Of a stretch of DNA of 32,000 bases, positions 1 through 30,128 are shown piece by piece. This DNA is from an uncultured Nitrososphaerota archaeon (GTDB lineage Archaea > Korarchaeota > Korarchaeia > Korarchaeales > Korarchaeaceae), in the NCBI GenBank assembly GCA_964480775.1, contig CAYZRF010000006.1, forward strand, positions 30,001 through 62,000. Direction: 5' to 3'. The notes under the pieces are model-generated. The model worked only from the letters and a program-made list of their open reading frames with translations. It was not told the origin of the DNA and made no database searches. Position 1 is the stretch's first letter; every line of letters starts with the position of its first letter. Both the position numbers and the translations under genes were made by a program.

Positions 1-651
1 TACGAGATTGGTAAGGCACTAAAAATGCCTGAATCGACAGTATATACGGCCTTAAAGTTTCTAGAAAGAAGAGGGTTTGTGACTTTTATTGAAGAGGAAA
101 AAGCAGGACCATTAAAAAAGAAAATATATAGACTAACTCCAAAGGGTCTGCAAGAAGCTTTGAGTTATATACCTCGGGAAAAAGAGGTTTGGGATAACGA
201 ACTCCTCCGAGAGCTGATTTCTCGTGAAAGTGGAGTTCCCTTTGAGTCCTTGAAGTTCAAAAAAGACCGACTCTTAGAAAATTGGGATGTAATAATGGGA
301 ATCATTAGAAAAAAGTACAGAGAAATGTGTCCAATCATCTTTGATAATTGGGATCTAATCTCTAAACATCTTGATCTTAGTAGAGGCGAGTTCCTTGATA
401 ACCTCTTCTACTCCTACAAAGACCCCAAAGAGCGAACGATTGCTTCCTTCCAAGAGTATTTCTTTGTTTCTTTAGTTATTAAGCCATCAGAAGAAGAAAA
501 AACGAGAATTGAAAAATTCTTGAAGGAAGCTAGTGAGATAAAGCCTTTGAAAGACATCCTTACTATAGCATTTAAAGAATTAGAGGAGCGTGTAGAGAGG
601 TCCTTAGAAGATATCAAAAAAATAAAGACCCGTCTTTCACAAAGCCCCTAA
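1..651 (+). CDS. PadR-like winged-helix transcriptional regulator; 5' end runs off the window
   Basis: Frame 1 is open from base 1 (YEIGKALK precedes the listed Met at 25). The segment PESTVYTALKFLERRGFVTFIEEEKAGPLKKKIYRLTPKGL fits the PadR-type recognition helix plus wing. A long helical C-terminal extension follows. A T6 tract sits directly after the stop. Confidence 0.6.
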   Translation, partial: YEIGKALKMPESTVYTALKFLERRGFVTFIEEEKAGPLKKKIYRLTPKGLQEALSYIPREKEVWDNELLRELISRESGVPFESLKFKKDRLLENWDVIMGIIRKKYREMCPIIFDNWDLISKHLDLSRGEFLDNLFYSYKDPKERTIASFQEYFFVSLVIKPSEEEKTRIEKFLKEASEIKPLKDILTIAFKELEERVERSLEDIKKIKTRLSQSP

Positions 652-830
652 CCATTTTTTCGAATCAGAAGAGGATTCAAATCCTTACCAAGAGAATCCA
701 CAGCATCGAAAGAAAAACACTCCAAAGGCGTTTTCGTGTTAGGACATGCCCCATGACCTATCTAACTTAGATAGGACCACTTCCCATAGCCCATGTTCCT
801 TAAATATGACTTCCGAAGGTGCACTTGGTT

Positions 831-844
831 TACTTTTTGCACCA
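831..844. repeat. 14-nt exact direct repeat TACTTTTTGCACCA, copy 1
   Basis: Read directly from the sequence. It is identical to 1344-1357. ACCAAGTG-like motifs lie next to both copies. Confidence 0.9.
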
Positions 845-984
845 CTTTGTGAAGTTTGTATCCTTGAAGATACCATCTCAAGCCTTGATCTCGAACCTAA
901 AAGAACAGATTTGAACCCTCTGAAGCTTGGATCTCTTAATGGCTTGTAACCATCCCACAAAAGGATAATAGGTTTTATCTGGCC

Positions 985-1335
985 TGCTTAATGCCCTCCC
1001 AAGCCTTAGAGGAGTGAGGAAGAAAGTCCGAGCACGACGGACATCGAGCCCTTCCCTCCCGGTCTATAAGCTGGGGTTCGATTACAAGGCCTAGGATCCG
1101 AGTTCATGCGACTTCCGATTGTGTACAAAGTACGCTACAATCATAACGATACCCACGAACCCCTGAGAACTACCCCAAATCTCGAACCTCCTTCGCCTTG
1201 CGGATCGTGTTGTAAACAGCCAAGTCCTAAACCCTCCCGGCTTCTCTTCACCTTTTCGCAAGAGGATCCAAGCCCTGTAAAAGGGGAAATAAGGGGAGGA
1301 TAAACGTCGCAGGGGATAGCCCTTATTTCCTAAAC
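985..1335. ncRNA. Candidate structured non-coding RNA (GC-rich block, identity unresolved; approximate ends)
   Basis: By hand count 1001-1320 is about 52% G+C, in an otherwise visibly AT-richer window. There is no credible ORF; the only one is a Pro-rich 65-aa artefact. Helices seen: 11-bp perfect hairpin 1285-1295/1320-1330; 9-bp long-range helix 1073-1081/1182-1190; nested hairpin 1117-1142; hairpin 1026-1030/1038-1042. CCCTCCC occurs three times. Confidence 0.4.
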
Positions 1336-1343
1336 ACCAAGTG

Positions 1344-1357
1344 TACTTTTTGCACCA
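1344..1357. repeat. 14-nt exact direct repeat TACTTTTTGCACCA, copy 2
   Basis: Identical to 831-844. It lies immediately 3' of the GC-rich block. Confidence 0.9.
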
Positions 1358-1675
1358 AGTTCCATTTCTTTAAAATTTCGTAATAAGGGTACCCCAACCC
1401 CTATTTTCAACGGATGCTAGCGTCAGAGAGTTGTTCTTGTGCCAACCTTTCTGTGGTTTTTTCCAAAACCCCCGGGCCGCCGAGCGAAGATCTTCGAAAC
1501 AACCGACAAAATAGGGAAAAGAGAGAGGAGAGTGAAGAATAAAACCGCGGGAGGATGCCTCGATTTTTCTCCGATTTTCTCCAACCCCTCCTCATGTTTT
1601 CATAGAAAACTTTTAGAGAATAACCTATTTATTGGACGTGAAAATAAATATATAGAAGATTGGAAGGATGTGAAA

Positions 1676-2125
1676 ATGATGAGCAGCAAGGGAGTGAGTC
1701 TCAAACGCTCCCTAATCCTCTGGTTGGTAAGAGAGTTCGAGAAGATGTTTGATAGGGGAATTACGGTAACTAGGCTAATGAAGCTTCTATACATGATAGA
1801 TGTCCGTCTAAAGAGTCTTGGTTTACCAACAACGAATATCAGATGGATTAGGTTTTGGTATGGTCCCTTTTCCGATGAAGTCATAGATCTGATAGAAGGA
1901 ATGGTCAAAGATAAGTCTTTAAGGAAGGAATATATCCCCTACGAAACCAAACTAATTAAAATCCTACATACTAAAGAGAATGTTAAACTGGACTCTAAAG
2001 TAGAACCCATAGCTCGCGAGGTATTGAAGGAACTTGGAGATCTTGAGTTCAATAAATTACTCGAGAAAGTCTACTCAACCTTTGATGAGAATAGAGTAGA
2101 TATAGGGGAGGAGTTGTTGGTTTGA
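1676..2125 (+). CDS. Panacea/DUF4065 (SocA/GepA-like) domain protein, putative antitoxin-type component
   Basis: ITVTRLMKLLYMIDVRLKSLGLPTTNIRWIRFWYGPFSDEVIDLIEGMV fits the L-x-KLLY...W..GP..(E)V signature of DUF4065. The in-frame ATG at 1676 is preceded by AGGATGTGA (SD-like) and an AAATAAATATATA TATA-like element. I regard the track's extension back to 1439 as non-coding. Confidence 0.75.
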   Translation: MMSSKGVSLKRSLILWLVREFEKMFDRGITVTRLMKLLYMIDVRLKSLGLPTTNIRWIRFWYGPFSDEVIDLIEGMVKDKSLRKEYIPYETKLIKILHTKENVKLDSKVEPIAREVLKELGDLEFNKLLEKVYSTFDENRVDIGEELLV

Positions 2126-2514
2126 ACGTAAGTATGGATTTGGAGGAGATTGTAAAGAGTACAAAAGAAAGAGTAATTCGAGGGGAAGAGATACCCAGCC
2201 TAGAAGAGCTCTCCTTTCCTAAAAAAACACCTTCTTTGAAGGTAATAATGGGACTACTTGAAGATGTTGTTTCCGTTACTGAGGAGATATCAAGTGCGCC
2301 ACCATCTCTTGAGTTAAACCTGAGAACGATAAAGGGATTATTAAAAGAAGCCAAAGGTAATGAAAAGATAAATAAGAGGGTCTTTTTTACTTACGTTCTC
2401 GCTGTTGCTATTTTAGAAAGTATATTGAGTAAAGAAATAAGGGGTCTTGACCGCTATCTAAAACGGCTTAATGAAGAGGTGATCTCTATCGCAGAGGCCC
2501 TCTCACCAGAATGA
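2122..2514 (+). CDS. Hypothetical protein (ORFan), candidate partner of the Panacea-domain protein
   Basis: The TTG start overlaps the upstream TGA stop (TTGA). GGAGGAG lies about 9 nt upstream. An alternative ATG is at 2134. The protein looks helical and has no His. It has one hydrophobic stretch, VFFTYVLAVAILESIL. I recognise no domain. Confidence 0.5.
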   Translation: MNVSMDLEEIVKSTKERVIRGEEIPSLEELSFPKKTPSLKVIMGLLEDVVSVTEEISSAPPSLELNLRTIKGLLKEAKGNEKINKRVFFTYVLAVAILESILSKEIRGLDRYLKRLNEEVISIAEALSPE

Positions 2515-2542
2515 TATCACTGTACTGGATACTTATTTCTAC

Positions 2543-3193
2543 ATGAACCCTATAGCCTTAAGTAATCTAAACTTTAGAAGAAGAAAAGTAATCTTCCTAG
2601 AAAATTTTCAACTTCTTCCAATAAAGAGGAATTTATTAGACGTTTCACAAAAACTTGTTCTTGATTGGCAGAGTCGTTTAATAAGATGTCCCAAAATAAA
2701 ATTTTCTACTGTTACCCACGGCTTAACTGGAGAAGAGCTTTTTGGAGCCATGTTCTTGGCCAGATCTATTAGCAATGAGAAAATCCCTAGACTTCTCAGT
2801 GGAAGTACAAAACTGAATTTGACCAGAGAAAGGGTTGGGATTCTAAGGGAAGAGACTCCTTGGACAAAACAGGAATTGATAAAATGCTTTTTAACAGATT
2901 TAATATGTCAAATCTTAGATAGTTATCTTAAATTCGAGAAAGTCGCTCAAGAGAGTCGAGAATTAATCCAACAAAAAGAAAGAGAATTCTCTTATCAATT
3001 TTGTAGCCGCTCATGTCCAAAAAATAGAAGCTCTCCAGAAAATGAGGATCTTAAACTGGCAATGGCCTGCAGGAGGCTTGTAGGGAGCGTAAAAGTCCAT
3101 GTAATTCCTAACAAAAAAGAGTGTTTTGGTTGTTTGTTGGAGTTCTTAACAGGGAGCCATCCAGATTGGCAGCACATTCAGGTCGTTCGCTGA
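2543..3193 (+). CDS. Hypothetical protein (ORFan)
   Basis: A 216-aa ATG-initiated ORF on the same strand, 28 nt after the previous gene. It is Cys/Gln/His-richer than its neighbours. It has no recognisable motif and no clear SD. Confidence 0.4.
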   Translation: MNPIALSNLNFRRRKVIFLENFQLLPIKRNLLDVSQKLVLDWQSRLIRCPKIKFSTVTHGLTGEELFGAMFLARSISNEKIPRLLSGSTKLNLTRERVGILREETPWTKQELIKCFLTDLICQILDSYLKFEKVAQESRELIQQKEREFSYQFCSRSCPKNRSSPENEDLKLAMACRRLVGSVKVHVIPNKKECFGCLLEFLTGSHPDWQHIQVVR

Positions 3194-3521
3194 ACCTCCT
3201 CTAAACAGATGATGATTTTCAAACCTTTTAATCCCAAAAACGAAGGTCATCGGGGTTTTAATTATTACCTCGAATCGTAGATTATAGCATTATCTTTACC
3301 ATTACTCAACAACTTTGGAAAAATTAAATATGTTGCCCCGATTACCATAAACCCAAGTGTTAGTATTCTGCTCCCGAATGTATGGAAGTACGGAATACGA
3401 ACATAAGGAAGGCGAATTTCCTTGACCACTTTGTACCTGGAAAAGTGAAGATCATAGGATCCATCTATTTAGCTATAATGGATCCTCAGGACCCTTTGTT
3501 TTCGAAATATTAACCGATGAA

Positions 3522-3656
3522 ATGGATCCTATGGAAACATTGATTTCTGAGGATCTCAATAAGCCAAAAAGAGTGAACTTCCCAAGACTTGAAAAAGAAG
3601 CCATTAGAGTTCTCTTTGAACATAAGACAAAGGAGCTTCAAGATTGGAGCCGGTAA
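3522..3656 (+). CDS. Possible 44-aa small protein (MDPMETLISEDLNKPKRVNFPRLEKEAIRVLFEHKTKELQDWSR)
   Basis: An ATG ORF below the track cutoff. It is followed by an 8-bp hairpin (3671-3678/3689-3696) embedded in a T-rich tract. There is no homology evidence. Confidence 0.2.
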   Translation: MDPMETLISEDLNKPKRVNFPRLEKEAIRVLFEHKTKELQDWSR

Positions 3657-3814
3657 TTGAAGAGAGGCTTTTCCTTTTCTCCTATAATAAAAGGAAGCTC
3701 CTTCAAAATAGACAGGATGGACCCTGAGATGTTGGCCTGTCTCGGTATCTTGCCATGGTTACCCCTTGCACCCTTAGGCACCAAAGTCAAGGATGGAAGG
3801 TCTTCTCATCATAG

Positions 3815-4966
3815 CTAGGTTGGTCCCTCCTCTTTCTCCAATACCATCTCTAGAGCTTCCCTAAGCTTGGCTCTGGCTTTTTTATTCTTCAAAATGCGCT
3901 CCATTAACTCATCAATCGTCTCTTCTATTGGCCTTATCTTCTCCCTGGCCTCCGCAGTAAGGGGATAGCCGCATTTCAAACAGAACATGGAATCGGAAGG
4001 GTTGATGAAGCCGCAGTCAGGACAAACTCTAGGTTCAAGAGCCCTCTCTTCCTCTTCCCTTATCTCCTTCAGCCCTAGAACCTTTCCAAGCACGGCATTC
4101 TCAACGTCCCTTCCTGATAAGTGAACATAAACAGAGGCCATCCTCGAATCCCTCGTCCAGCCGGCAAATAGCTTAAGTTCCTGCTCCGTGAGCTTCTTTG
4201 CAAGCTCCGTTAGCCTTGTATGCCTTAACATGTGAGGATGAACCCCTTTCAGCCCTGCTCTTTCCCCAGCCCTCTTGACTAACGTTCCCACGGCCGTCCT
4301 AGTAAGCTTTATTCCCTTCCTCCCAGGGAAGAGCCAGTTCTCGGGCCTTGGATCGGGATGTATTTGAAGCCAAGCCCTCAGGTATGGAACAGAGTCGTGA
4401 AGAGGGATCACGCGCTCTCCGGTCTTGCCCTTTATCCTTATCCTTAATCCGTAATCTGTGAACTCCAGATCTTTAATCCTCAAAGAGCAAAGCTCTCCAG
4501 CCCTAATGGCAGATTCGTACAGTAAGGCTATTATGGCCTTGCTCTTCGTGTTCCTACATCCCTTTATTAGAGCCTTGATCTCCTCCGGAGAAAGTATCTT
4601 ATCCCTTAAATTCGTCTCCTTTTTCTCCTTGATTATGAGATCCCACGCTTTGGGTAGTTCCCCTCCATTAAGCCATCTTACGAAGCTCCTGAACCTGTTA
4701 AAGTAAACAGAGGCAGAGCTTCTCCCGACCTCATTGAGCATACCCTTAAAGAAGTTCCTGACTTGGTTTCTATTTGCCTGAAGAGGAGGTCTCCCAACTA
4801 TCGAGCTATATCGTTTTGAAGCTTGAACATAGATGAATTTTGTGTGAGAACTAAGTCCTTTCTCAACAAAATAGTTTCTTAAGGGGTCTGAAAGCCAGGT
4901 CGGGAGTTCTTCCAAAATTTGGGTTGTGAGCCTCTCTTTCCTTGCTTTCTCCCTGTCCTCGGACAT
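3815..4966 (-). CDS. Tyrosine recombinase/integrase (phage-integrase family) with C-terminal zinc ribbon
   Basis: An N-terminal SAM-like core-binding domain is present. Catalytic pattern: ESAIRAGE (Arg), IKGKTGER (Lys), HPHMLRHTR (His-x-x-Arg), GWT, ASVYVHL (Tyr). A CPDCG-x10-CLKCG zinc ribbon is at residues 315-336, followed by a charged helix. Confidence 0.9.
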   Translation of the reverse strand: MSEDREKARKERLTTQILEELPTWLSDPLRNYFVEKGLSSHTKFIYVQASKRYSSIVGRPPLQANRNQVRNFFKGMLNEVGRSSASVYFNRFRSFVRWLNGGELPKAWDLIIKEKKETNLRDKILSPEEIKALIKGCRNTKSKAIIALLYESAIRAGELCSLRIKDLEFTDYGLRIRIKGKTGERVIPLHDSVPYLRAWLQIHPDPRPENWLFPGRKGIKLTRTAVGTLVKRAGERAGLKGVHPHMLRHTRLTELAKKLTEQELKLFAGWTRDSRMASVYVHLSGRDVENAVLGKVLGLKEIREEEERALEPRVCPDCGFINPSDSMFCLKCGYPLTAEAREKIRPIEETIDELMERILKNKKARAKLREALEMVLEKEEGPT

Positions 4967-4987
4967 TAAGGAATTATCCGATCAAGG

Positions 4988-4996
4988 TTTATAAAA
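4988..4996 (-). promoter_or_regulatory. TATA-like element (TTTTATAAA on minus strand) for the integrase, implying a leaderless or very short-leader mRNA
   Basis: The element is centred about 26 nt upstream of the integrase ATG (4966). There is no SD in between. Only 48 nt separate the integrase start from the tfs stop. Confidence 0.35.
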
Positions 4997-5014
4997 TGTA
5001 TAGAATACTAACAA

Positions 5015-5335
5015 TTAACTAAATTCTCTCCAAGAATAGCCACACTTTGTGCATAAATATATCCGAGTAGGGGGCTCATCAGCACTCCTAGTCTGTACCA
5101 TCTGAAAATAAGCCTTGGAATTTCCGCACTTAGGACAAACTTTCGTAACAACAGGTGAACTCAATAAATCTTCCTTAATTATAGGAGTTTCCTCTGATGA
5201 ACTGCTAGAAACGCTGCTAACTATATTGACTAACTTACCACCTTCTCCTTCATACCCGCAAACTGGACATTTGAAAACAATATTTTCTTTCTTTTTTCCC
5301 GGAGTCATCAGAGAACCGCATTTAGGGCATATCAA
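5015..5335 (-). CDS. tfs: Transcription factor S (TFIIS-type cleavage factor / RpoM-like)
   Basis: The N-terminal zinc ribbon is CPKCG...CPVCG. The C-terminal ribbon is CPKCG...QTRSADEPPTRIYLCTKCG..W, carrying the acidic DE hairpin. Confidence 0.85.
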   Translation of the reverse strand: MICPKCGSLMTPGKKKENIVFKCPVCGYEGEGGKLVNIVSSVSSSSSEETPIIKEDLLSSPVVTKVCPKCGNSKAYFQMVQTRSADEPPTRIYLCTKCGYSWREFS

Positions 5336-5415
5336 GATTTAACCCCCAGGTGTAACGACACATCCCAAATATATTAATTAGCTCGATGGCAAAACTACCT
5401 CATAAGGGTTAGGAA

Positions 5416-5952
5416 TTGAAAGTTATAAGAGGAGTCGCAGGAAGGGTAGGAAGAAGAAAACAGCTGGCAGTGATCGTTGATGGCCCAAACATCCTTAGAA
5501 AAGAGCTTGGACTTGACTTAGAGGAAATCCGAAAGATATCAGAGAGCATGGGTAGAGTTAGAAAAGCTGTTGTCGTACTAAATAGACAGGCGCCAGAAAA
5601 ATTGGTGGAAGCTGTAGCCAACGCTGGATTTGATGTAAAAATCTCTTTTGGAAAGCCCGAAGTGGATTTCACAATCGCCGCCATGGAAGCAGCTTTTACG
5701 GACAAGATACAAACCCTTATCTTAGCAACTAGGAGTGCAGCTTACCTTCCTATAATTCACAAAATTAAAGAGATAGGAAAAGAAGTCGTTGTAATTGGTG
5801 CAGAGCCTGGTTTCAGTGTAGCATTGAAGAAAGCGGCCGATCTATCTCTAGCCCTTGGAGAAAGTTCTTCTAAGTCCTCCAATACCAGAGATCAAAGACA
5901 AGACAATACCAGAAAAGCTAAAAGACACAAGAACGCTAAGAAAGAAGGCTAG
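5416..5952 (+). CDS. NYN/LabA-like domain protein (COG1432-like)
   Basis: LAVIVDGPNIL near the N-terminus and a Rossmann-like ILATRSAAYLPIIHKIKEIGKEVVVIG segment. The usual acidic SGDSDF-type motif appears replaced by ATRSAAY. The start is TTG. The basic low-complexity tail overlaps the convergent gene. Confidence 0.5.
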   Translation: MKVIRGVAGRVGRRKQLAVIVDGPNILRKELGLDLEEIRKISESMGRVRKAVVVLNRQAPEKLVEAVANAGFDVKISFGKPEVDFTIAAMEAAFTDKIQTLILATRSAAYLPIIHKIKEIGKEVVVIGAEPGFSVALKKAADLSLALGESSSKSSNTRDQRQDNTRKAKRHKNAKKEG

Positions 5953-6936
5953 CGAGCCATACTCCCCTATTAGATAAAGACCGAGAGCGTAGAAGATAAT
6001 CCACAAAGAAATGACAGAAGCCATTGAGAAAATCTTTAGGAGGAGTTCTTGACGCCTTCTTAAACAATATGCTTCTATTATGCCGCCCGATACCATTAAG
6101 ATCATAAATATTGTTATGAGAGAAGAAGAGTCGACGATCACTTTTCCAAATAACTTTGAAGGATTTAATTCAATAATTGACTTTGATATTAGCATGTATT
6201 CTCTAAAGAAGGTGTATCCAATGCCAATAAGCCCTATCCAGAAAGAGATTTTTCCTAATTTTTTCCCAAAAACTTCAGGGAGCCCACCAAGCCTCTTCTT
6301 AAGGGAGAAACCTCTTTCCATTAATAAAATTCCTAGAAAACCTCCTAACGCAGACCACATATATTTCTGAAGGTTAAAAACAGAAAGAACTGATGTTATC
6401 AAGATCACGGCGCCAGGAACGCCGAAAATATATGCCCTTGTTCCAGGGCTCTCTAATAATTTCTTTAAGTATCTTCTCAAAAGGAAGTAGGTTTCTTCTA
6501 ACTCTCTGCTTTGTTGTACAATAATTCTTCTGACAAAAACTCTAGGAAAGAAGCTATGAAGAAGGGGGAGAACTCTCTCGTCATCTGCCCCATCTGAAAC
6601 TAAAATTGCAAGATCTGCCTTGAACTCACTTGTGATTTCAATTAGTTGTCGCTCAACCTCCGCATCAGCATAGTTCTCACTTCTAGAGTCGCCAGTTATC
6701 GTTGCAACCTGCACCTCAGCGCCTTTATACTGTTGTAAGGCCCTATCATACTCTCGGACCGCCCCAAATATAGCGTTTGCATCTGCCTCCTCAGGATCTA
6801 CAGATAGAAGCTTAACTCCAGCTTCTACACAAGCTTCCCTCCCAATTACTGGACCCTTAATCCCAGCTTTATCAGTAAGATCCGCATCTCTATCGACGCA
6901 AAGAACAAGAATCTTCCTAACTGGGGAGGTAGACAT
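5848..6936 (-). CDS. Archaeal membrane protein with N-terminal soluble domain (DUF373-like)
   Basis: ILVLCVDRDADLTDKAGIKGPVIGRE is an N-terminal domain typical of this archaeal family as I recall it. About six hydrophobic helices follow. Confidence 0.55.
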   Translation of the reverse strand: MSTSPVRKILVLCVDRDADLTDKAGIKGPVIGREACVEAGVKLLSVDPEEADANAIFGAVREYDRALQQYKGAEVQVATITGDSRSENYADAEVERQLIEITSEFKADLAILVSDGADDERVLPLLHSFFPRVFVRRIIVQQSRELEETYFLLRRYLKKLLESPGTRAYIFGVPGAVILITSVLSVFNLQKYMWSALGGFLGILLMERGFSLKKRLGGLPEVFGKKLGKISFWIGLIGIGYTFFREYMLISKSIIELNPSKLFGKVIVDSSSLITIFMILMVSGGIIEAYCLRRRQELLLKIFSMASVISLWIIFYALGLYLIGEYGSLAFFLSVLVSFSFSGIVLSLISGIGGLRRTFSKG

Positions 6937-8922: not shown

Positions 8923-10140
8923 TTAAATCTTACGATGCCTGAACCTAAGTTTCCACTTAGGCTCAGTTGACGCCTTTTCCTCTTCCTCCTTCAAAAATCT
9001 ATCAGGGGGAACATAATATCTTCCAGCTGCATCCTTTTCTATTAATCCAGCGATCACCATAGCTTCAAGTCTTGTCCTCTCCTCACTTGGAGTGGCCTCT
9101 AGGGCCTCAGCTATGGCCTCAAGCCCCGCAGGCCCACCATCAAATTCTTCTACTAAAACAAAAAGCTCTCCTTTGTATTTTTCTACACATTTCTTGACGT
9201 AGTTAAACTTAGGGGCATCAACCTTGAGAATGCTGTCTAGAACATCCATATCAACTCTTCTTTTACCTAAGAGAACAGCAAGGTCGACAGCCCTACCCAA
9301 GAGTCTAAGTAATCTTCTTGGATTTCCTTCTATGAGTTCATTTATTTTGACAACCACTTCCTCTTCTAAGGGCATCCGAGAGGACCTTTGAACCTGATAG
9401 GCCTTGATTCTTTTTTCTACTAACAGCAAAGCTTCTTCATTCGTCAACGGATGCATGAAAAATCTGTGATGAAGTCTAGACGAAAGAGCTGGAAAATTCT
9501 GATCTACCTTCTCATAGGTTCCGTCGCTCATGGCCATTGCCACAACTATTCCCTCTGGCATCGAAGATACTATCTCTCGAATTGCTTCAAAGAAAATAAA
9601 TCTCCAATACTCTCCCATCTGAATTGCGTTATGCAAACCATCTAGCAGTATAGCTGCTGGCCTGTGTTTCACTAACGCTCCTAAAATTATATCTCCCATC
9701 TTAACAGGAGAAGATCTGATTTCTTCCAATTCCTCTTCTGGAATTGCTTCACTATACCCAAGCAAACCCTTCTTTATCTTAACAGTAATACCAGCTGATA
9801 AAGACATGGCCGTCTTAATGAGCATGTCAAGGACATCTGGCCCTGAAGCCATAGCTACGTCAAAGTATATGACCTCGCCACCTGCCTTTTCAATAGTATC
9901 CTCAATGACCATTAATCTATGGGTTCTACCACTACCTTTTGGTCCAGTAAGTGCGAAAAACGCTGATCCAGAACCAGCAATTGTTTCTGCGACCATCGCC
10001 AGGAGAAGACCATCCCCTTCTTGTTTCACAAAGAAAGAGGAAGCTTCTTCTGGGCTAATTAGAGATAGGGCTTTAAATGGATTTCTCTTTAGCCCTAGGA
10101 GTTTCTCATAAGCCCTAATAGGGGGAGTTGAAACGCTCAA
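8923..10140 (-). CDS. P-loop NTPase with C-terminal winged-helix-like domain (non-canonical AAA+-like)
   Basis: Walker A is LTGPKGSGRT. The Walker B-like segment AAILLDGLHN has D-G rather than D-E. A GNPRRLLRLL helix resembles the Orc/Cdc6 lid. The C-terminal AGLIEKDAAGRYYV looks like a wHTH. The start is TTG. Confidence 0.55.
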   Translation of the reverse strand: MSVSTPPIRAYEKLLGLKRNPFKALSLISPEEASSFFVKQEGDGLLLAMVAETIAGSGSAFFALTGPKGSGRTHRLMVIEDTIEKAGGEVIYFDVAMASGPDVLDMLIKTAMSLSAGITVKIKKGLLGYSEAIPEEELEEIRSSPVKMGDIILGALVKHRPAAILLDGLHNAIQMGEYWRFIFFEAIREIVSSMPEGIVVAMAMSDGTYEKVDQNFPALSSRLHHRFFMHPLTNEEALLLVEKRIKAYQVQRSSRMPLEEEVVVKINELIEGNPRRLLRLLGRAVDLAVLLGKRRVDMDVLDSILKVDAPKFNYVKKCVEKYKGELFVLVEEFDGGPAGLEAIAEALEATPSEERTRLEAMVIAGLIEKDAAGRYYVPPDRFLKEEEEKASTEPKWKLRFRHRKI

Positions 10141-16796: not shown

Positions 16797-18902
16797 ATGC
16801 AACTTAAGTACGAACGTGATGTCTTAATTAAAATCGTAGAATTTGTTTCTCTAGTAACTTCTTACTTGATGGGAGTTTATTTTAGGCTGAGACCTGCGCT
16901 TCTCTATGGATTTTCTCTGACAGCCGACGATCCGCTGCTTCATTATAGGATGACAAAATATCTATTAGAAACAGGAAGTCTCCCAACGAGAGACTTTCTT
17001 TCTTGGCAGCCATGGGGATATGTACCAGAAAGGGTTTTACCTCCTCTCCACTATTATACGGGGGTTTTTCTTTACAAAATTGTCCGATTGATAGCCCCAA
17101 GTCTATCTCTCTATGATTTTTCAGTCATAATTCCTGCTTTCTTTGCGCCTCTTGCAATATTTCCAGTTTACTTCATAGCTAGGGATTTGTGGGGCAAAGA
17201 AACAGCAGTTTTCTCAGCCCTTTCGCTATCATCGATAATGGCCTATCTAGTTAGGTCTCATGCTGGTTTCTATAGGCACGAACAATTTGCAATTCCGTTC
17301 ATCTGTCTTTCCTTGATGTTCACAATAATGTCAATGCGGTCAAAAGAAGAATGGAAGTCCCTACTATATGCAGGATTGAGTGGATTAATGCTTTTGTATG
17401 TGGCTGGATCTTGGGCCGCTTTCAGATTCCTATTTGATGGTTATGCTGTTTATTTTCTTATCTTACTTGTGTTGGACAAGGTGAACAGAAAGAGCGAATA
17501 CGCATTATTAATCCCCCCAATCTATGTCCTAGCTTCATCTCTGGGCTTTCTCTCAAATATAACTGCCAGAAAACAGTATTTGAGGGTAGATAGTTTACCA
17601 GTCTATGGTGCACTTTTAACAGCCCTTATATACGAAATTATACCCAGAGTCAATTTTCTGAGGAGAATTTCAAGGAAAATAAGGGCGAATTACCTTGCAA
17701 TCGTCGTATCAGTAGGTATAATGGCCTCAATGATTTTTGCGGGTTTGGCCATTCCTCTTACCGCAAGGCTCACAAGGGTAGTTTTGCCTGGCATTAGTTT
17801 GCCCAAAGGAAATGTTGTCGAAACCGTCATGGAACATAGACCTGGATCGACTGAGAACATACTTATAAACTTCTTTGGCTTCCTACTTCTTCCCTTTATG
17901 GCTGGAGTCATATTACTAGTAGTAGAACGATGGAAAAACATTGAAGATATGCTTGTTCTATTTCTTTCACTACTTTCCATGTATTTTGCGTTGAGTATGG
18001 TTCGTCTTCCTCCGTTAGCAGCGCCATTCTTCTGTCTAGTATCTTCCTACACTGTACACTGGATAACGAACGTTACATCTAAGAAGATAGAGTCCCTGTC
18101 TAGGAGAAGGCGGTTTCTTAAGAAGAAAGGTAGAAAGCCAAAGCGTTCTTATGTACTTAGTGAAATTGCTCCAGTTCTCTTGATTGCAAGCTTTCTCATC
18201 GTTGGACCACTAGCTCATTCCATTTATTCTGGTATTCAGTTCTCAAAAAGCAAACCTAACTTTATAGAGTTGGATGAAGAATGGATGAGAGCAATTCATT
18301 GGTTAACAGAGAATGCAGAACCAGGAGACATCATCATGTCTTGGTGGGATTATGGGTACTGGATCATCTTCGCATCCAACGAAAGTTTTAGGGTTCTTGT
18401 AGATGGGCTTACAATAAACAGTACCCAGATTAGACAAGTAGCAAAAGCATTTACTGGTACTGAGGAAGAAGCATTGGATGTCGCCATGAGATTTGGTGTG
18501 AGCTACATCATTATCCTTGATGTAGAGGTTGGACTTGATAGCTATTATGATCCTAATACAGGAAATACATTTTTCAGACCATTTGATGGATCAGGGAAAT
18601 GGATGGCGATGGCTTGGATTGCTAAAAGATTTGAATATAGCCCTTATAGCGAAGGATACCAGTGGTGGACAAACGATTTACCCAAGTTCTTTGTGCGTCA
18701 AGATAATACTATGTATCCGACATATAGAACCATTGATATGACCGTCTTCAAACTATTCGGTTCTTATTATAATCTAACGAAGCCGAGATACTTTGAATTA
18801 GCGCACTTCGAGACCTCCAAAGCTAAAGTAACAAGCAAGGATGGGAGCATAATAGACTACGAATGGCCCCACGTCCTGATATTCAAGGTGAAGGCGCCTT
18901 GA
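16797..18902 (+). CDS. aglB: Oligosaccharyltransferase AglB (STT3 family)
   Basis: A multi-pass N-terminal domain and the WWDYGYW motif are present. GAGGTG SD precedes the ATG. Confidence 0.92.
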   Translation: MQLKYERDVLIKIVEFVSLVTSYLMGVYFRLRPALLYGFSLTADDPLLHYRMTKYLLETGSLPTRDFLSWQPWGYVPERVLPPLHYYTGVFLYKIVRLIAPSLSLYDFSVIIPAFFAPLAIFPVYFIARDLWGKETAVFSALSLSSIMAYLVRSHAGFYRHEQFAIPFICLSLMFTIMSMRSKEEWKSLLYAGLSGLMLLYVAGSWAAFRFLFDGYAVYFLILLVLDKVNRKSEYALLIPPIYVLASSLGFLSNITARKQYLRVDSLPVYGALLTALIYEIIPRVNFLRRISRKIRANYLAIVVSVGIMASMIFAGLAIPLTARLTRVVLPGISLPKGNVVETVMEHRPGSTENILINFFGFLLLPFMAGVILLVVERWKNIEDMLVLFLSLLSMYFALSMVRLPPLAAPFFCLVSSYTVHWITNVTSKKIESLSRRRRFLKKKGRKPKRSYVLSEIAPVLLIASFLIVGPLAHSIYSGIQFSKSKPNFIELDEEWMRAIHWLTENAEPGDIIMSWWDYGYWIIFASNESFRVLVDGLTINSTQIRQVAKAFTGTEEEALDVAMRFGVSYIIILDVEVGLDSYYDPNTGNTFFRPFDGSGKWMAMAWIAKRFEYSPYSEGYQWWTNDLPKFFVRQDNTMYPTYRTIDMTVFKLFGSYYNLTKPRYFELAHFETSKAKVTSKDGSIIDYEWPHVLIFKVKAP

Positions 18903-20002
18903 GATCTCCTCTAGATTACTTCTCTAGAAAAGATCAATTTGAAAATAAAGTCTATAAAGACCTAAAGAGAGAAGTTCTGCAACTATCAACAGAGAAACAG
19001 CTGAAAAACCTTCATGGATTGGTTTTTGCGATGATAAAGCCAGCAGCATTTACTAGAGGGCTAGCTCCAGAAATTGTTCAGTGGTTGCACCAAGTAGGCT
19101 TCAAAATAGTTCTCTATAAATTTGGAGAAGTGAAAGGAGAGGAGCTAGATAAACTTTATCTTTTCGTAAAGCGAAAATACCAAGAATCTTGGTGGATAAT
19201 GGAGAGAGCTTATTCTATGGCGCCTGCCTTAGCGATGGTTTTAGTTGGAAATAAAAATAACCATGAACATGCTTGTGCTAGGTTAAGAGATCTTATTGGG
19301 CCCACGACGCCGGAAGCAGGAACAAAAGGAAATCTAAGATATGATCTAAAGGGAGTTAATCGAGTTTTTAACATAATCCATGTTTCTGATGATCCAGCTG
19401 CGGCTTTACGTGAATCAAGCGTTTTCTTCGAATTGAAAGAGGTCATAGAGTCTATAACATCCGAAGACGAAGTGAACCTATCAATTAACAAATTAAAACC
19501 TAACAATTCACGGAGAATATCTAGATGGGAGATCTTTTCAAAGCTAAAGAGGAGGTGTAACCTTCTCTTGAATTCCGAAAAGCTTCAGAAATTGCTTGAC
19601 ACGGAACTTGAAATATTAGCTGAAGACTTTCCTTTCGACAAAGAAAGAAAGGAGCTATTACCAATTGAGAGAGAGATCTCAAAAATAGCTCGTTCTATCT
19701 GGGAAGAAACAAATAAAGAAGCCATAAATAAAGCTAGAACAAAGCTCCCTTTAAGGGATAAGAGGATATGGGAAGAAATCAACGACAAGCTGTGTTCAGC
19801 AAGATGTATAGAACTCTTAAGCGACGAGCTTGAATTAACTGATGAGAGCAATTTTGAGCTATATTTACTTTGGATGATAAACAGAAACGTCATAACAGAC
19901 GGGTGGGAAGAAATTATTACTCACAGTACTTGGGCGGTAATGCCTCAAATGATTAAAGATTTCAAAAAATACGAAAAAATAATAATATCCAGAAGAAGTT
20001 AA
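18863..20002 (+). CDS. Nucleoside-diphosphate-kinase-like domain fused to an uncharacterised ~185-aa C-terminal helical domain
   Basis: Matches to NDK run motif by motif: FAMIKPAAFTRGLAPEIV, PALAMVLVG, RLRDLIGPTTPEAGTKGNLRYDL, NIIHVSD, ESSVFF. The start is more likely the TTG at 18899, which has AGGTGA 7 nt upstream and forms a TTGA overlap with the aglB stop. Confidence 0.7.
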   Translation: MAPRPDIQGEGALRSPLDYFSRKDQFENKVYKDLKREVLQLSTEKQLKNLHGLVFAMIKPAAFTRGLAPEIVQWLHQVGFKIVLYKFGEVKGEELDKLYLFVKRKYQESWWIMERAYSMAPALAMVLVGNKNNHEHACARLRDLIGPTTPEAGTKGNLRYDLKGVNRVFNIIHVSDDPAAALRESSVFFELKEVIESITSEDEVNLSINKLKPNNSRRISRWEIFSKLKRRCNLLLNSEKLQKLLDTELEILAEDFPFDKERKELLPIEREISKIARSIWEETNKEAINKARTKLPLRDKRIWEEINDKLCSARCIELLSDELELTDESNFELYLLWMINRNVITDGWEEIITHSTWAVMPQMIKDFKKYEKIIISRRS

Positions 20003-29504: not shown

Positions 29505-30128
29505 ATGCCAACTTCAGAATCTGAAGAATCTGTTGTGAGGTGGACTGCTGAATCCCTTTCTATAACTGCAGTTGGTATTTGGACTGCTATTTTTCTACTT
29601 TGGGCTCTTTACAGTGGGAAACTTAGCCTAGAGCAGGGAATAGCATCTCTAGCTCAAATAGGTTTTATTCTACTAATTTGGGGAATAGGTGCGCTCATCG
29701 TTGCGGGTGGAAGCGGATTAATCTATGGAATGACTGCGAAGAAGGAAGAAGTTGTTAAGGTGGAGGAAATAGCCCCACCAAATGCTTTCTTAGGGCCTCA
29801 TCCACAAGCAGTAAAGGCTGGTCGCTTTATATTTGTGTCATATCAGCTTCCTTTGAATCCTGTAACTGGTCAGATAATAAAAGGAGATACACTATTACAG
29901 GCAAGAGCAGTCCTGGATTCGTTAAAGAATCTTTTACTCTCGAATGAGAAGGGCCTAGAGGATGTCATCAAACTAACCTTCTATGTAACAAGTCTAGAAA
30001 AACAACACGATGTTGAGAGAGCCTACTTAGAAACCTTTACTCATGGAAGGCCTGCTATGACTATAATTGAAGTTTCAGGACTTCCTTTTGGAGTTGATGT
30101 GGCCCTAGATGCTATAGTCAGGGCGTAA
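29505..30128 (+). CDS. RidA/YjgF/UK114-family protein with N-terminal two-helix membrane anchor
   Basis: The C-terminal ~125 aa are GPHPQAVKAGRFIFVS.Q.P.NP.TGQII.GD...Q....L..L......G..L.DVIKLTFYV, ending PAMTIIEVSGLP.GV.V. Two hydrophobic helices lie at the N-terminus. Confidence 0.8.
   Translation: MPTSESEESVVRWTAESLSITAVGIWTAIFLLWALYSGKLSLEQGIASLAQIGFILLIWGIGALIVAGGSGLIYGMTAKKEEVVKVEEIAPPNAFLGPHPQAVKAGRFIFVSYQLPLNPVTGQIIKGDTLLQARAVLDSLKNLLLSNEKGLEDVIKLTFYVTSLEKQHDVERAYLETFTHGRPAMTIIEVSGLPFGVDVALDAIVRA

Follow-up and report, generated by a model that had tools for sequence, protein, structure and literature searches.

Panacea is known as a hyperpromiscuous antitoxin domain; to our knowledge, hardly any work has been devoted to its archaeal members, none of which has been put to a test. 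Proteins carrying this domain act as antitoxins (PanA) that are paired with unrelated toxins (PanT), making up the PanAT systems (Kurata et al., 2022, PMC8832971; Ernits et al., 2023, PMC10440598). The domain has a compact fold made of helices alpha1-alpha7 and strands beta1-beta2 (Ernits et al., 2023, PMC10440598). In multidomain PanA it is the attached domain that neutralises, Panacea being thought to sense, and the question of whether Panacea neutralises directly or has the role of a platform or sensor was raised in the same work (Ernits et al., 2023, PMC10440598). In the published survey of PanAT, third genes accompany a given pair in a small fraction of genomes, and the criteria for a toxin-antitoxin (TA)-like locus include a partner at most 100 nt away from the Panacea gene and a conserved neighbourhood of at most three genes (Kurata et al., 2022, PMC8832971). 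Here we consider a cassette of three genes, A, B and C (open reading frames ORF1, ORF2 and ORF3), which occupies positions 1676-3193 of a stretch of 32,000 nt from the genome of an uncultured Korarchaeota-like archaeon (the window: positions 30,001 to 62,000 of contig CAYZRF010000006.1). Gene A encodes a Panacea protein, and the cassette appears to be one copy of a conserved, horizontally mobile A-B-C Panacea module of thermophilic archaea, which would most likely be a tripartite TA or abortive-infection-type cassette. The locus is best read as a Panacea protein accompanied by an uncharacterised effector, and the evidence set out below points to C, rather than B, as the likelier toxic component.

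Gene A (1676-2125, on the forward strand, as are B and C) encodes a Panacea (SocA_Panacea/DUF4065) protein of 149 aa standing alone, or of 148 aa in the NCBI call, which uses the second Met as start. ORF1 belongs to the Panacea family: in a Pfam scan its residues 34-133 matched positions 1-107 of the 113 in profile PF13274 (SocA_Panacea) at E 2.6e-8, its score of 35.2 bits exceeding the curated cut-off (25.7), and a precomputed match to this profile is present in all close relatives. The signature that the initial annotation, made from the letters of the DNA alone, had recognised in this protein is thereby confirmed. A full HMMER scan of 1.84 billion representatives yielded 128 relatives at E ≤ 1e-3, the nearest ones being 45%, 36%, 36% and 32% identical to ORF1. 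A search of PDB sequences gave no relative, and PADLOC, PHROGs and NCBIfam gave weak matches only, to Panacea-containing entries (PDC-M19A, a type I specificity subunit and DarG). Gene B (2122-2514) codes for an acidic (isoelectric point 5.3), all-helical protein of 130 aa. Gene C (2516-3193, called as 2543-3193, 216 aa) is recognised by its homology to the C genes of other loci and belongs to a new family of ~215-290 aa. Codon-usage log-likelihoods, trained on the remaining genes of the window, were positive in the called frames only; all three genes have host-like coding statistics, the called frame being top of six, with 0.25 per codon for ORF1, 0.31 for ORF2 and 0.03, the lowest of the three, for ORF3.

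That these genes belong together is best seen in other archaea. Loci were taken from the contigs of ORF1 relatives, together with 80 loci from a metagenome scan with an alignment of the PanA clade (individual loci and contigs are designated by L numbers), and C homologues were recovered by iterated profile search over all ORFs of the collected loci. Downstream of PanA, homologues of ORF3 turned up in no fewer than 13 lineages distinct in sequence, whose G+C contents span 35-67%. The same order is repeated: A (Panacea), B (a small helical protein), then C (~215-290 aa), with 3-28 nt between B and C in most lineages and 1-28 nt in the window, depending on where C starts. The downstream frames are thus conserved beside Panacea genes, a point on which the initial annotation had made its proposal depend; its description of both of them as ORFans does not hold, since homologues of each lie next to distant Panacea relatives. 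Between lineages A is 29-49% identical and C 20-35%. Identity in B is at background, 17-29%, so the B slot is conserved by position and hypervariable by sequence. In the L095/L102/L107 lineage the ratio of nonsynonymous to synonymous substitution rates is 0.15-0.25 for all three genes; they are thus under purifying selection, and B and C are real genes. The module is known from a Korarchaeota/Thermoproteota metagenome-assembled genome (MAG), where the Panacea protein of L099 is annotated as a hypothetical protein, and from hydrothermal-sediment metagenome contigs, that is, from thermophilic archaea. The genes flanking the unit vary from locus to locus; its neighbours elsewhere include HicAB, Cas4, TnpB, an AAA_21/AAA_15 ATPase, an Eco57I-type methyltransferase, a NOV_C helicase and a PLD-domain protein. 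Within the 1.55 Mb of collected DNA, family C was seen solely in PanA-containing loci. Among 2.9 million viral contigs, a single query with ORF1 found no relative, and the PanA alignment gave two distant matches, without C.

In one locus, L123 (878-3882 and 6116-8402), the module is flanked on one side by genes for a Rad51-like ATPase and a DNA polymerase of family B, and on the other by a restriction-modification gene of Eco57I/N6_Mtase type, which suggests that this copy may be carried on a self-replicating element or in a defence island. Slightly more distant PanA relatives have quite different partners of 244-284 aa (L093:1521-2276, L097:551-1402 and L112:4435-5169), coupled by a 4-nt overlap or, in L097, by direct abutment; the L093 partner is very hydrophobic and that of L097 ends in a possible PD-(D/E)xK-like motif. 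They would exemplify how partners are exchanged where the A-B-C clade borders on other PanA.

Judged by the PanAT-like locus criteria of the survey, the cassette qualifies on all three counts, with an overlap of 4 nt between A and B and a gap of 1-28 nt between B and C in the window (Kurata et al., 2022, PMC8832971). It resembles PanAT in having a Panacea protein that stands alone and scores above the Pfam threshold, in placing the antitoxin-like gene first and in packing its genes tightly; it is likewise a locus of no more than three genes conserved across species, with partners devoid of known domains and a mobile, defence-rich setting. The differences are equally clear. A-B-C is tripartite throughout the clade, whereas third genes of PanAT are only sporadic; its middle gene is hypervariable, and the conserved partner is the third gene, C, not the adjacent one; and A-B-C was seen in thermophilic archaea.

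ORF3 is clearly a member of family C. It matches the C protein of L099 over its full length (34% identity over 218 aa, E 1e-35) and that of L084 with E 1e-10. The family has an N-terminal motif, hLD(T/S)(Y/W)Y.Y, a C-terminal Cys4 motif, CxnC...ECFxC, and conserved acidic residues. In an alignment of 11 members, C158, D169, E193 and C194 (ORF3 numbering) are invariant, E64 and C197 nearly so, and the first pair of cysteines together with ECFxC looks like a Cys4 metal site. In Pfam, PADLOC, PHROGs and NCBIfam ORF3 has no match at E ≤ 1, and no significant one among PDB sequences (for the other C members, PADLOC and PHROGs gave nothing either). A single-sequence AlphaFold2 (AF2) model of ORF3 is unusable, with a predicted local distance difference test score (pLDDT) of 36. 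Zinc-ribbon nucleases of PIN type (Mut7-C/DUF82, Nob1) and the VapC toxins of VapBC come to mind, because the hhLD(T/S) of C is reminiscent of PIN strand 1 and the family has further acidic residues (E64, D169, E193) besides its Cys4. The LD(T/S)YY motif and these three residues are conserved in C; the spacing of the acidic residues is atypical for PIN, about twice that of VapC. The likeness is a lead only, and profile comparisons gave it no statistical support: Mut7-C (E 0.13) and Chp1-like_PIN (E 0.086) each appeared in one of the 11 members, below cut-offs and at the level of noise, a comparison of the family profile with PDB gave nothing, and hhalign against an NYN alignment returned a probability of 0.1%.

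What sets C apart is its fate. At least seven lineages, independently of one another, have C disrupted internally beside an intact A and B, by frameshifts or truncations at differing positions (L084/85/100, L090/91/106, L101, L103, L105 and L108) and, in L082/83, by an IS605/TnpB insertion, while L099 is intact. This insertion truncates C of L082 relative to that of L099, which is otherwise 95% similar. Were the damage distributed simply according to the lengths of the genes, seven disruptions out of seven would fall in C with a probability of ~0.006. In one further locus, L116, C has been lost entirely and B is also damaged. The inserted segment of L082 (1669-3035) comprises an IS200/IS605-type TnpB (OrfB_IS605, Cas12f1-like TNB) with a 47-aa upstream ORF, and sits inside the 3' part of C.

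The B slot behaves otherwise. In the window, the TGA stop of A (2123-2125) overlaps a TTG at 2122, reading TTGA, as had been noticed at the outset; the same arrangement was found in homologous cassettes. In nearly every lineage the A/B junction is ATGA, GTGA or TTGA, usually a 4-nt overlap. A Shine-Dalgarno-like string, GGGGAGGAG (2105-2113, forward strand), is located inside the 3' end of gene A, 9-10 nt 5' of the TTG, and a GG(A/T)G(A)GG equivalent precedes the overlapping start in most of 13 aligned homologous cassettes: the conserved C-terminal G-E-E of PanA encodes the GGAGG-like string 9-10 nt before the junction. The recurrence of both features in homologous cassettes supports the TTG start and translational coupling here. 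B proteins range in size from 114 to 210 aa across lineages, and demonstrable homologues of ORF2 are limited to three of them, in the same position, forming subfamily B1: B of L082/L099 (32% identity, E 3e-10), B of L098 (27%, E 3e-7), and B of L084, which groups with them through a three-sequence alignment only. Attempts to link the other B subfamilies, or the tails of A described below, to one another gave hhalign probabilities below 10%, and BLAST did not link the B subfamilies either. As with ORF3, scans of ORF2 against Pfam, PADLOC, PHROGs and NCBIfam gave no match at E ≤ 1, and PDB sequences gave none of significance, which agrees with the absence of a recognised domain noted earlier; its single-sequence AF2 model is helical and of low confidence (pLDDT 51).

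The hydrophobic helix of ORF2 had suggested a small membrane-active toxin, an idea that finds no support: over 19 residues the Kyte-Doolittle mean peaks at 1.47, under the 1.6 expected of a transmembrane helix, and the stretch contains three charged residues. Its B1 homologues have maxima of 0.75-1.55. In only two of ~13 B lineages, L109 (2.03) and L121 (1.72), is 1.6 exceeded. Finally, L086/87 and L111 have no B gene at all; their PanA is extended by ~110 aa into a helical tail, and only 6 nt separate it from C.

Taken together, these observations point to ORF3 as a likelier toxic component than ORF2, because C is repeatedly disrupted alone, because B is hypervariable and because B has apparently been fused to PanA twice; the lack of a membrane helix in ORF2 also counts in favour of C. 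The proposal of the initial annotation, that one or both downstream proteins may be an effector neutralised by the PanA-like protein, therefore survives in part: the partner is uncharacterised and the cassette sits in a TA slot, whereas ORF2 as a small membrane-active toxin and the orphan status of the genes are not upheld. We would class the module as a tripartite variant of PanAT, and give about an even chance to the best-supported model, with C as the effector and A and B as the neutraliser or sensor. C would then be a toxic effector provided with a Cys4 metal site and four conserved acidic positions, on account of which it may be a metal-dependent enzyme, for example a nuclease. A, together with the tightly coupled, fast-evolving helical B, would form the neutralising and sensing part. 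The part played by B might resemble that of PAD1, Phd-C and ZBD, the detachable domains by which multidomain PanA, where they are joined to Panacea, neutralise their toxins.

The resemblance to multidomain PanA (PAD1, Phd-C or MqsA-type ZBD) lies in L086/87 and L111, where Panacea bears a tail that replaces B. By analogy, this suggests that the tails could be an attachable and detachable neutralising module, Panacea serving as platform or sensor. The window differs in that its B is a separate polypeptide, and Pfam recognises no PAD1, Phd-C or ZBD either in B or in the tails. Tripartite TA systems (TAC, HipBST, PaaR-PaaA-ParE) provide another parallel, with three co-transcribed small genes and neutralisation split between two proteins, as it may be in A-B-C. 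Yet A-B-C has no SecB-like chaperone, HipA-type kinase or helix-turn-helix regulator (for the three window proteins, scans of Pfam and of NCBIfam, PADLOC and PHROGs gave no match to SecB or any other chaperone), and this places the cassette outside the known tripartite TA classes.

To be sure, several points weigh against C as effector of a tripartite PanAT. The loci were gathered by PanA similarity, which makes the association of C with PanA a one-directional test. In Pfam, PADLOC, PHROGs and the PDB, by sequence or by profile, no known toxin, enzyme or structure is detectably similar to family C, and a nuclease would be read from conserved D, E and Cys residues and nothing more. Selective loss of C would follow equally if C were a dispensable accessory gene. 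The tails of A in L086 and L111 have no homology to any B subfamily that hhalign can demonstrate, and no DNA-binding autoregulator was recognised in the module. Classically, the gene that is translationally coupled to an antitoxin, here B, is the toxin.

This last point leads directly to an alternative in which A and B make a classical two-gene PanAT, with B as toxin, and C is accessory or regulatory, for instance a zinc-ribbon DNA binder controlling the operon. We consider it rather unlikely. The overlapping start that couples B to PanA, present in every lineage with a B gene, is indeed the usual arrangement of antitoxin and toxin, and Panacea proteins standing alone do neutralise toxins directly (Ernits et al., 2023, PMC10440598), but B is the least conserved of the three proteins, with subfamilies that cannot be aligned, whereas toxins are normally the better conserved partner, and its slot has seemingly been fused to PanA in two lineages. 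Small membrane PanT are known (Kurata et al., 2022, PMC8832971), and the B proteins of L109 and L121 have a membrane-grade helix; the window B and its nearest homologues lack a credible one. While Cys4 motifs are frequent in DNA-binding zinc ribbons, and the loss of an accessory gene would be tolerable and could account for the disrupted C, it remains that B is intact wherever C is broken, its sole damage being found in L116, which has lost C as well, and that C is present in every lineage of the clade, in contrast to the sporadic third genes of the published survey.

A further alternative dispenses with toxicity altogether: the module would be an accessory operon of archaeal mobile elements, involved for example in regulation, partition or anti-defence, with Panacea as a mere protein-binding scaffold. 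The cassette would nevertheless count as a TA-like locus in the survey, it replaces bona fide TA pairs in the same chromosomal slot (see below), and its one-sided decay is typical of toxin genes, so that this explanation seems improbable to us, even though none of the components matches a known toxin and it is not settled what Panacea does biochemically, sensing being one proposal (Ernits et al., 2023, PMC10440598). That the module travels with TnpB, recombinase and PolB/Rad51-like genes would suit a mobile-element operon; the viral contigs, with two distant PanA matches and no C, do not.

A distinct question concerns the window copy. Positions 2516-2542, in frame and 5' of the ATG at 2543, code for ITVLDTYFY, the N-terminal stretch conserved in family C, the upstream in-frame translation of ORF3 reading ...NDITVLDTYFYMNP. 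There is no ATG, GTG or TTG in this frame between the stop at 2480-2482 and 2543, and the GTG start of C in L099 is aligned to ACT in the window. Because the N-terminal motif comes before the first canonical start, either a non-canonical start is used (ATC 2516, placed 1 nt after the stop of gene B, or CTG 2525) or the product is truncated. On one reading C may be started at a non-canonical codon, perhaps by re-initiation after B; on another it may be made from Met10 without the conserved Asp, and hence probably be attenuated. The effector of this copy may thus be attenuated or depend on a non-standard start codon, a peculiarity that fits the general tendency of C to be inactivated. It follows that the gap of 28 nt reported before ORF3 is correct up to the ATG at 2543 and is partly an artefact, as the conserved N-terminus is encoded within it.

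One may go further and regard the window copy as a decaying remnant in which C has lost its start codon, A and B being transient and without function. This is possible, if doubtful, and our estimate bears on the window copy, apart from those given for the role of the module. The N-terminal motif with its conserved Asp upstream of the first usual start, the weak coding score of ORF3 and the disruption of C in many other lineages speak for decay. However, the frame of C is open over 237 codons (2483-3193, overlapping the end of ORF2 by 32 nt), with no frameshift and with the Cys4 and acidic motifs intact, and re-initiation at ATC 2516 or a start at ATG 2543 is feasible. Nor is this an assembly error, since a 2,435-bp independent Logan assembly is identical to window 876-3310, with no differences.

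The selective and repeated breakage of C predicts a new toxic effector, possibly with a new enzyme fold, in hyperthermophilic archaea. Two new protein families are defined, the hypervariable B slot and the Cys4/acidic C, neither matched in the libraries searched. The occasional fusion of A and B in a three-gene clade would be a natural experiment on whether Panacea neutralises directly or is the platform or sensor for a separate neutraliser. A more specific proposal, that we hold to be unlikely as it stands, is that A-B-C is a new archaeal antiviral system in which Panacea is the platform or sensor, the hypervariable B a fast-evolving subunit for specificity or trigger recognition, and C an enzyme with a Zn-dependent fold not recognised before, whose release kills the cell or arrests it. 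If true, thermophilic archaea would have a PanAT version of their own, tripartite and composed of sensor, adaptor and effector.

The genomic setting is that of an archaeal chromosome, the proteins of the window including elongation factor EF-2, Cdc48, AglB/STT3, a threonyl-tRNA synthetase with the archaea-specific editing domain, TFS and DUF373. A gene for a tyrosine recombinase, with a XerA-like core and a C-terminal zinc ribbon (3815-4966, reverse strand), adjoins the TFS gene and lies 622 nt downstream of the cassette, on the opposite strand; the protein matches Pfam Phage_integrase (E 2.8e-30) and Zn_Ribbon_1, and NCBIfam XerA with 119 bits, under the cut-off of 220. Sister species were identified through the DUF373 protein in GTDB genomes (91% identity in L002, 86% in L003 and 80% in L004, MAGs of Guaymas-type samples that bear the label Thermoproteota or Nitrososphaerota; Kor4, a contig of Korarchaeia, is at 81%). 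L002 is collinear with the window across the whole recombinase gene, to window 3825, and L003 over its first 537 nt, to window 4430; the orthologue is intact in L002 (2485-3642) and internally deleted in L003 (12025-12297). Since the recombinase is conserved next to TFS in sister species, it looks like an old, fixed gene flanking a cargo-exchange hotspot, not like a recently arrived island integrase. An additional ORF with a Cdc6_C winged helix (3602-4447) comes immediately after the recombinase in L002.

The right edge of the variable segment can be placed 14 nt after the stop of C (3194-3207): in blastn, L003 12796-12704 corresponds to window 3208-3300 and L002 5191-5140 to window 3208-3259, and no match of L002 or L003 was found left of 3208, the sister contigs ending before the left boundary. 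In the same slot (L002 5222-6200 and L003 12827-13048), the sisters carry other cargo, a 73-aa protein with a ParE toxin, and DUF2283 with a PBECR2 nuclease. As similarity stops at 3208 and the sister cargo is of TA type, the Panacea cassette occupies a slot that is held by other TA pairs in its relatives. The locus would thus be a TA exchange hotspot, where differing TA cassettes are swapped beside a conserved recombinase in Korarchaeota-like genomes. The integrase island on which the cassette had initially been placed is therefore to be amended: the recombinase is nearby and the cargo variable, but the recombinase is conserved in sister species and no flanking att-like repeat was found in window 1-6500. 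A single query of viral contigs gave no relative of the recombinase.

Upstream of the cassette, a TATA-like A/T-rich box, AAATAAATATATAG (1643-1656, forward strand), was read in the sequence ~25 nt 5' of the ATG of ORF1. It is a putative archaeal promoter of a leaderless three-gene transcript, its placement relative to ATG 1676/1679 being inferred from the usual archaeal spacing between TATA box and start. The preceding ~1 kb (652-1675) contains no ORF with coding signal and has no counterpart in L002 or L003, the sister loci; there is no Rfam match and no excess folding energy that would indicate a structured RNA. This region, which could be either what remains of decayed cargo or the left portion of the variable segment, holds a 17-nt direct repeat, GT(T/G)TACTTTTTGCACCA (828-844 and 1341-1357). 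Around 1018-1030 the string GGAAGAAAGTCCG resembles CR-I of RNase P, probably by chance. The PadR-like gene at the left edge, considered as a truncated gene, simply extends beyond the window.

Two other genes of the window, unrelated to the cassette, deserve mention. On the reverse strand, an ORF of 405 aa (8923-10140) has no Pfam match at E ≤ 1e-5. On the forward strand, a protein of 379 aa (18863-20002), the C-terminal ~185 residues of which are unexplained, carries an NDK domain at residues 55-193.

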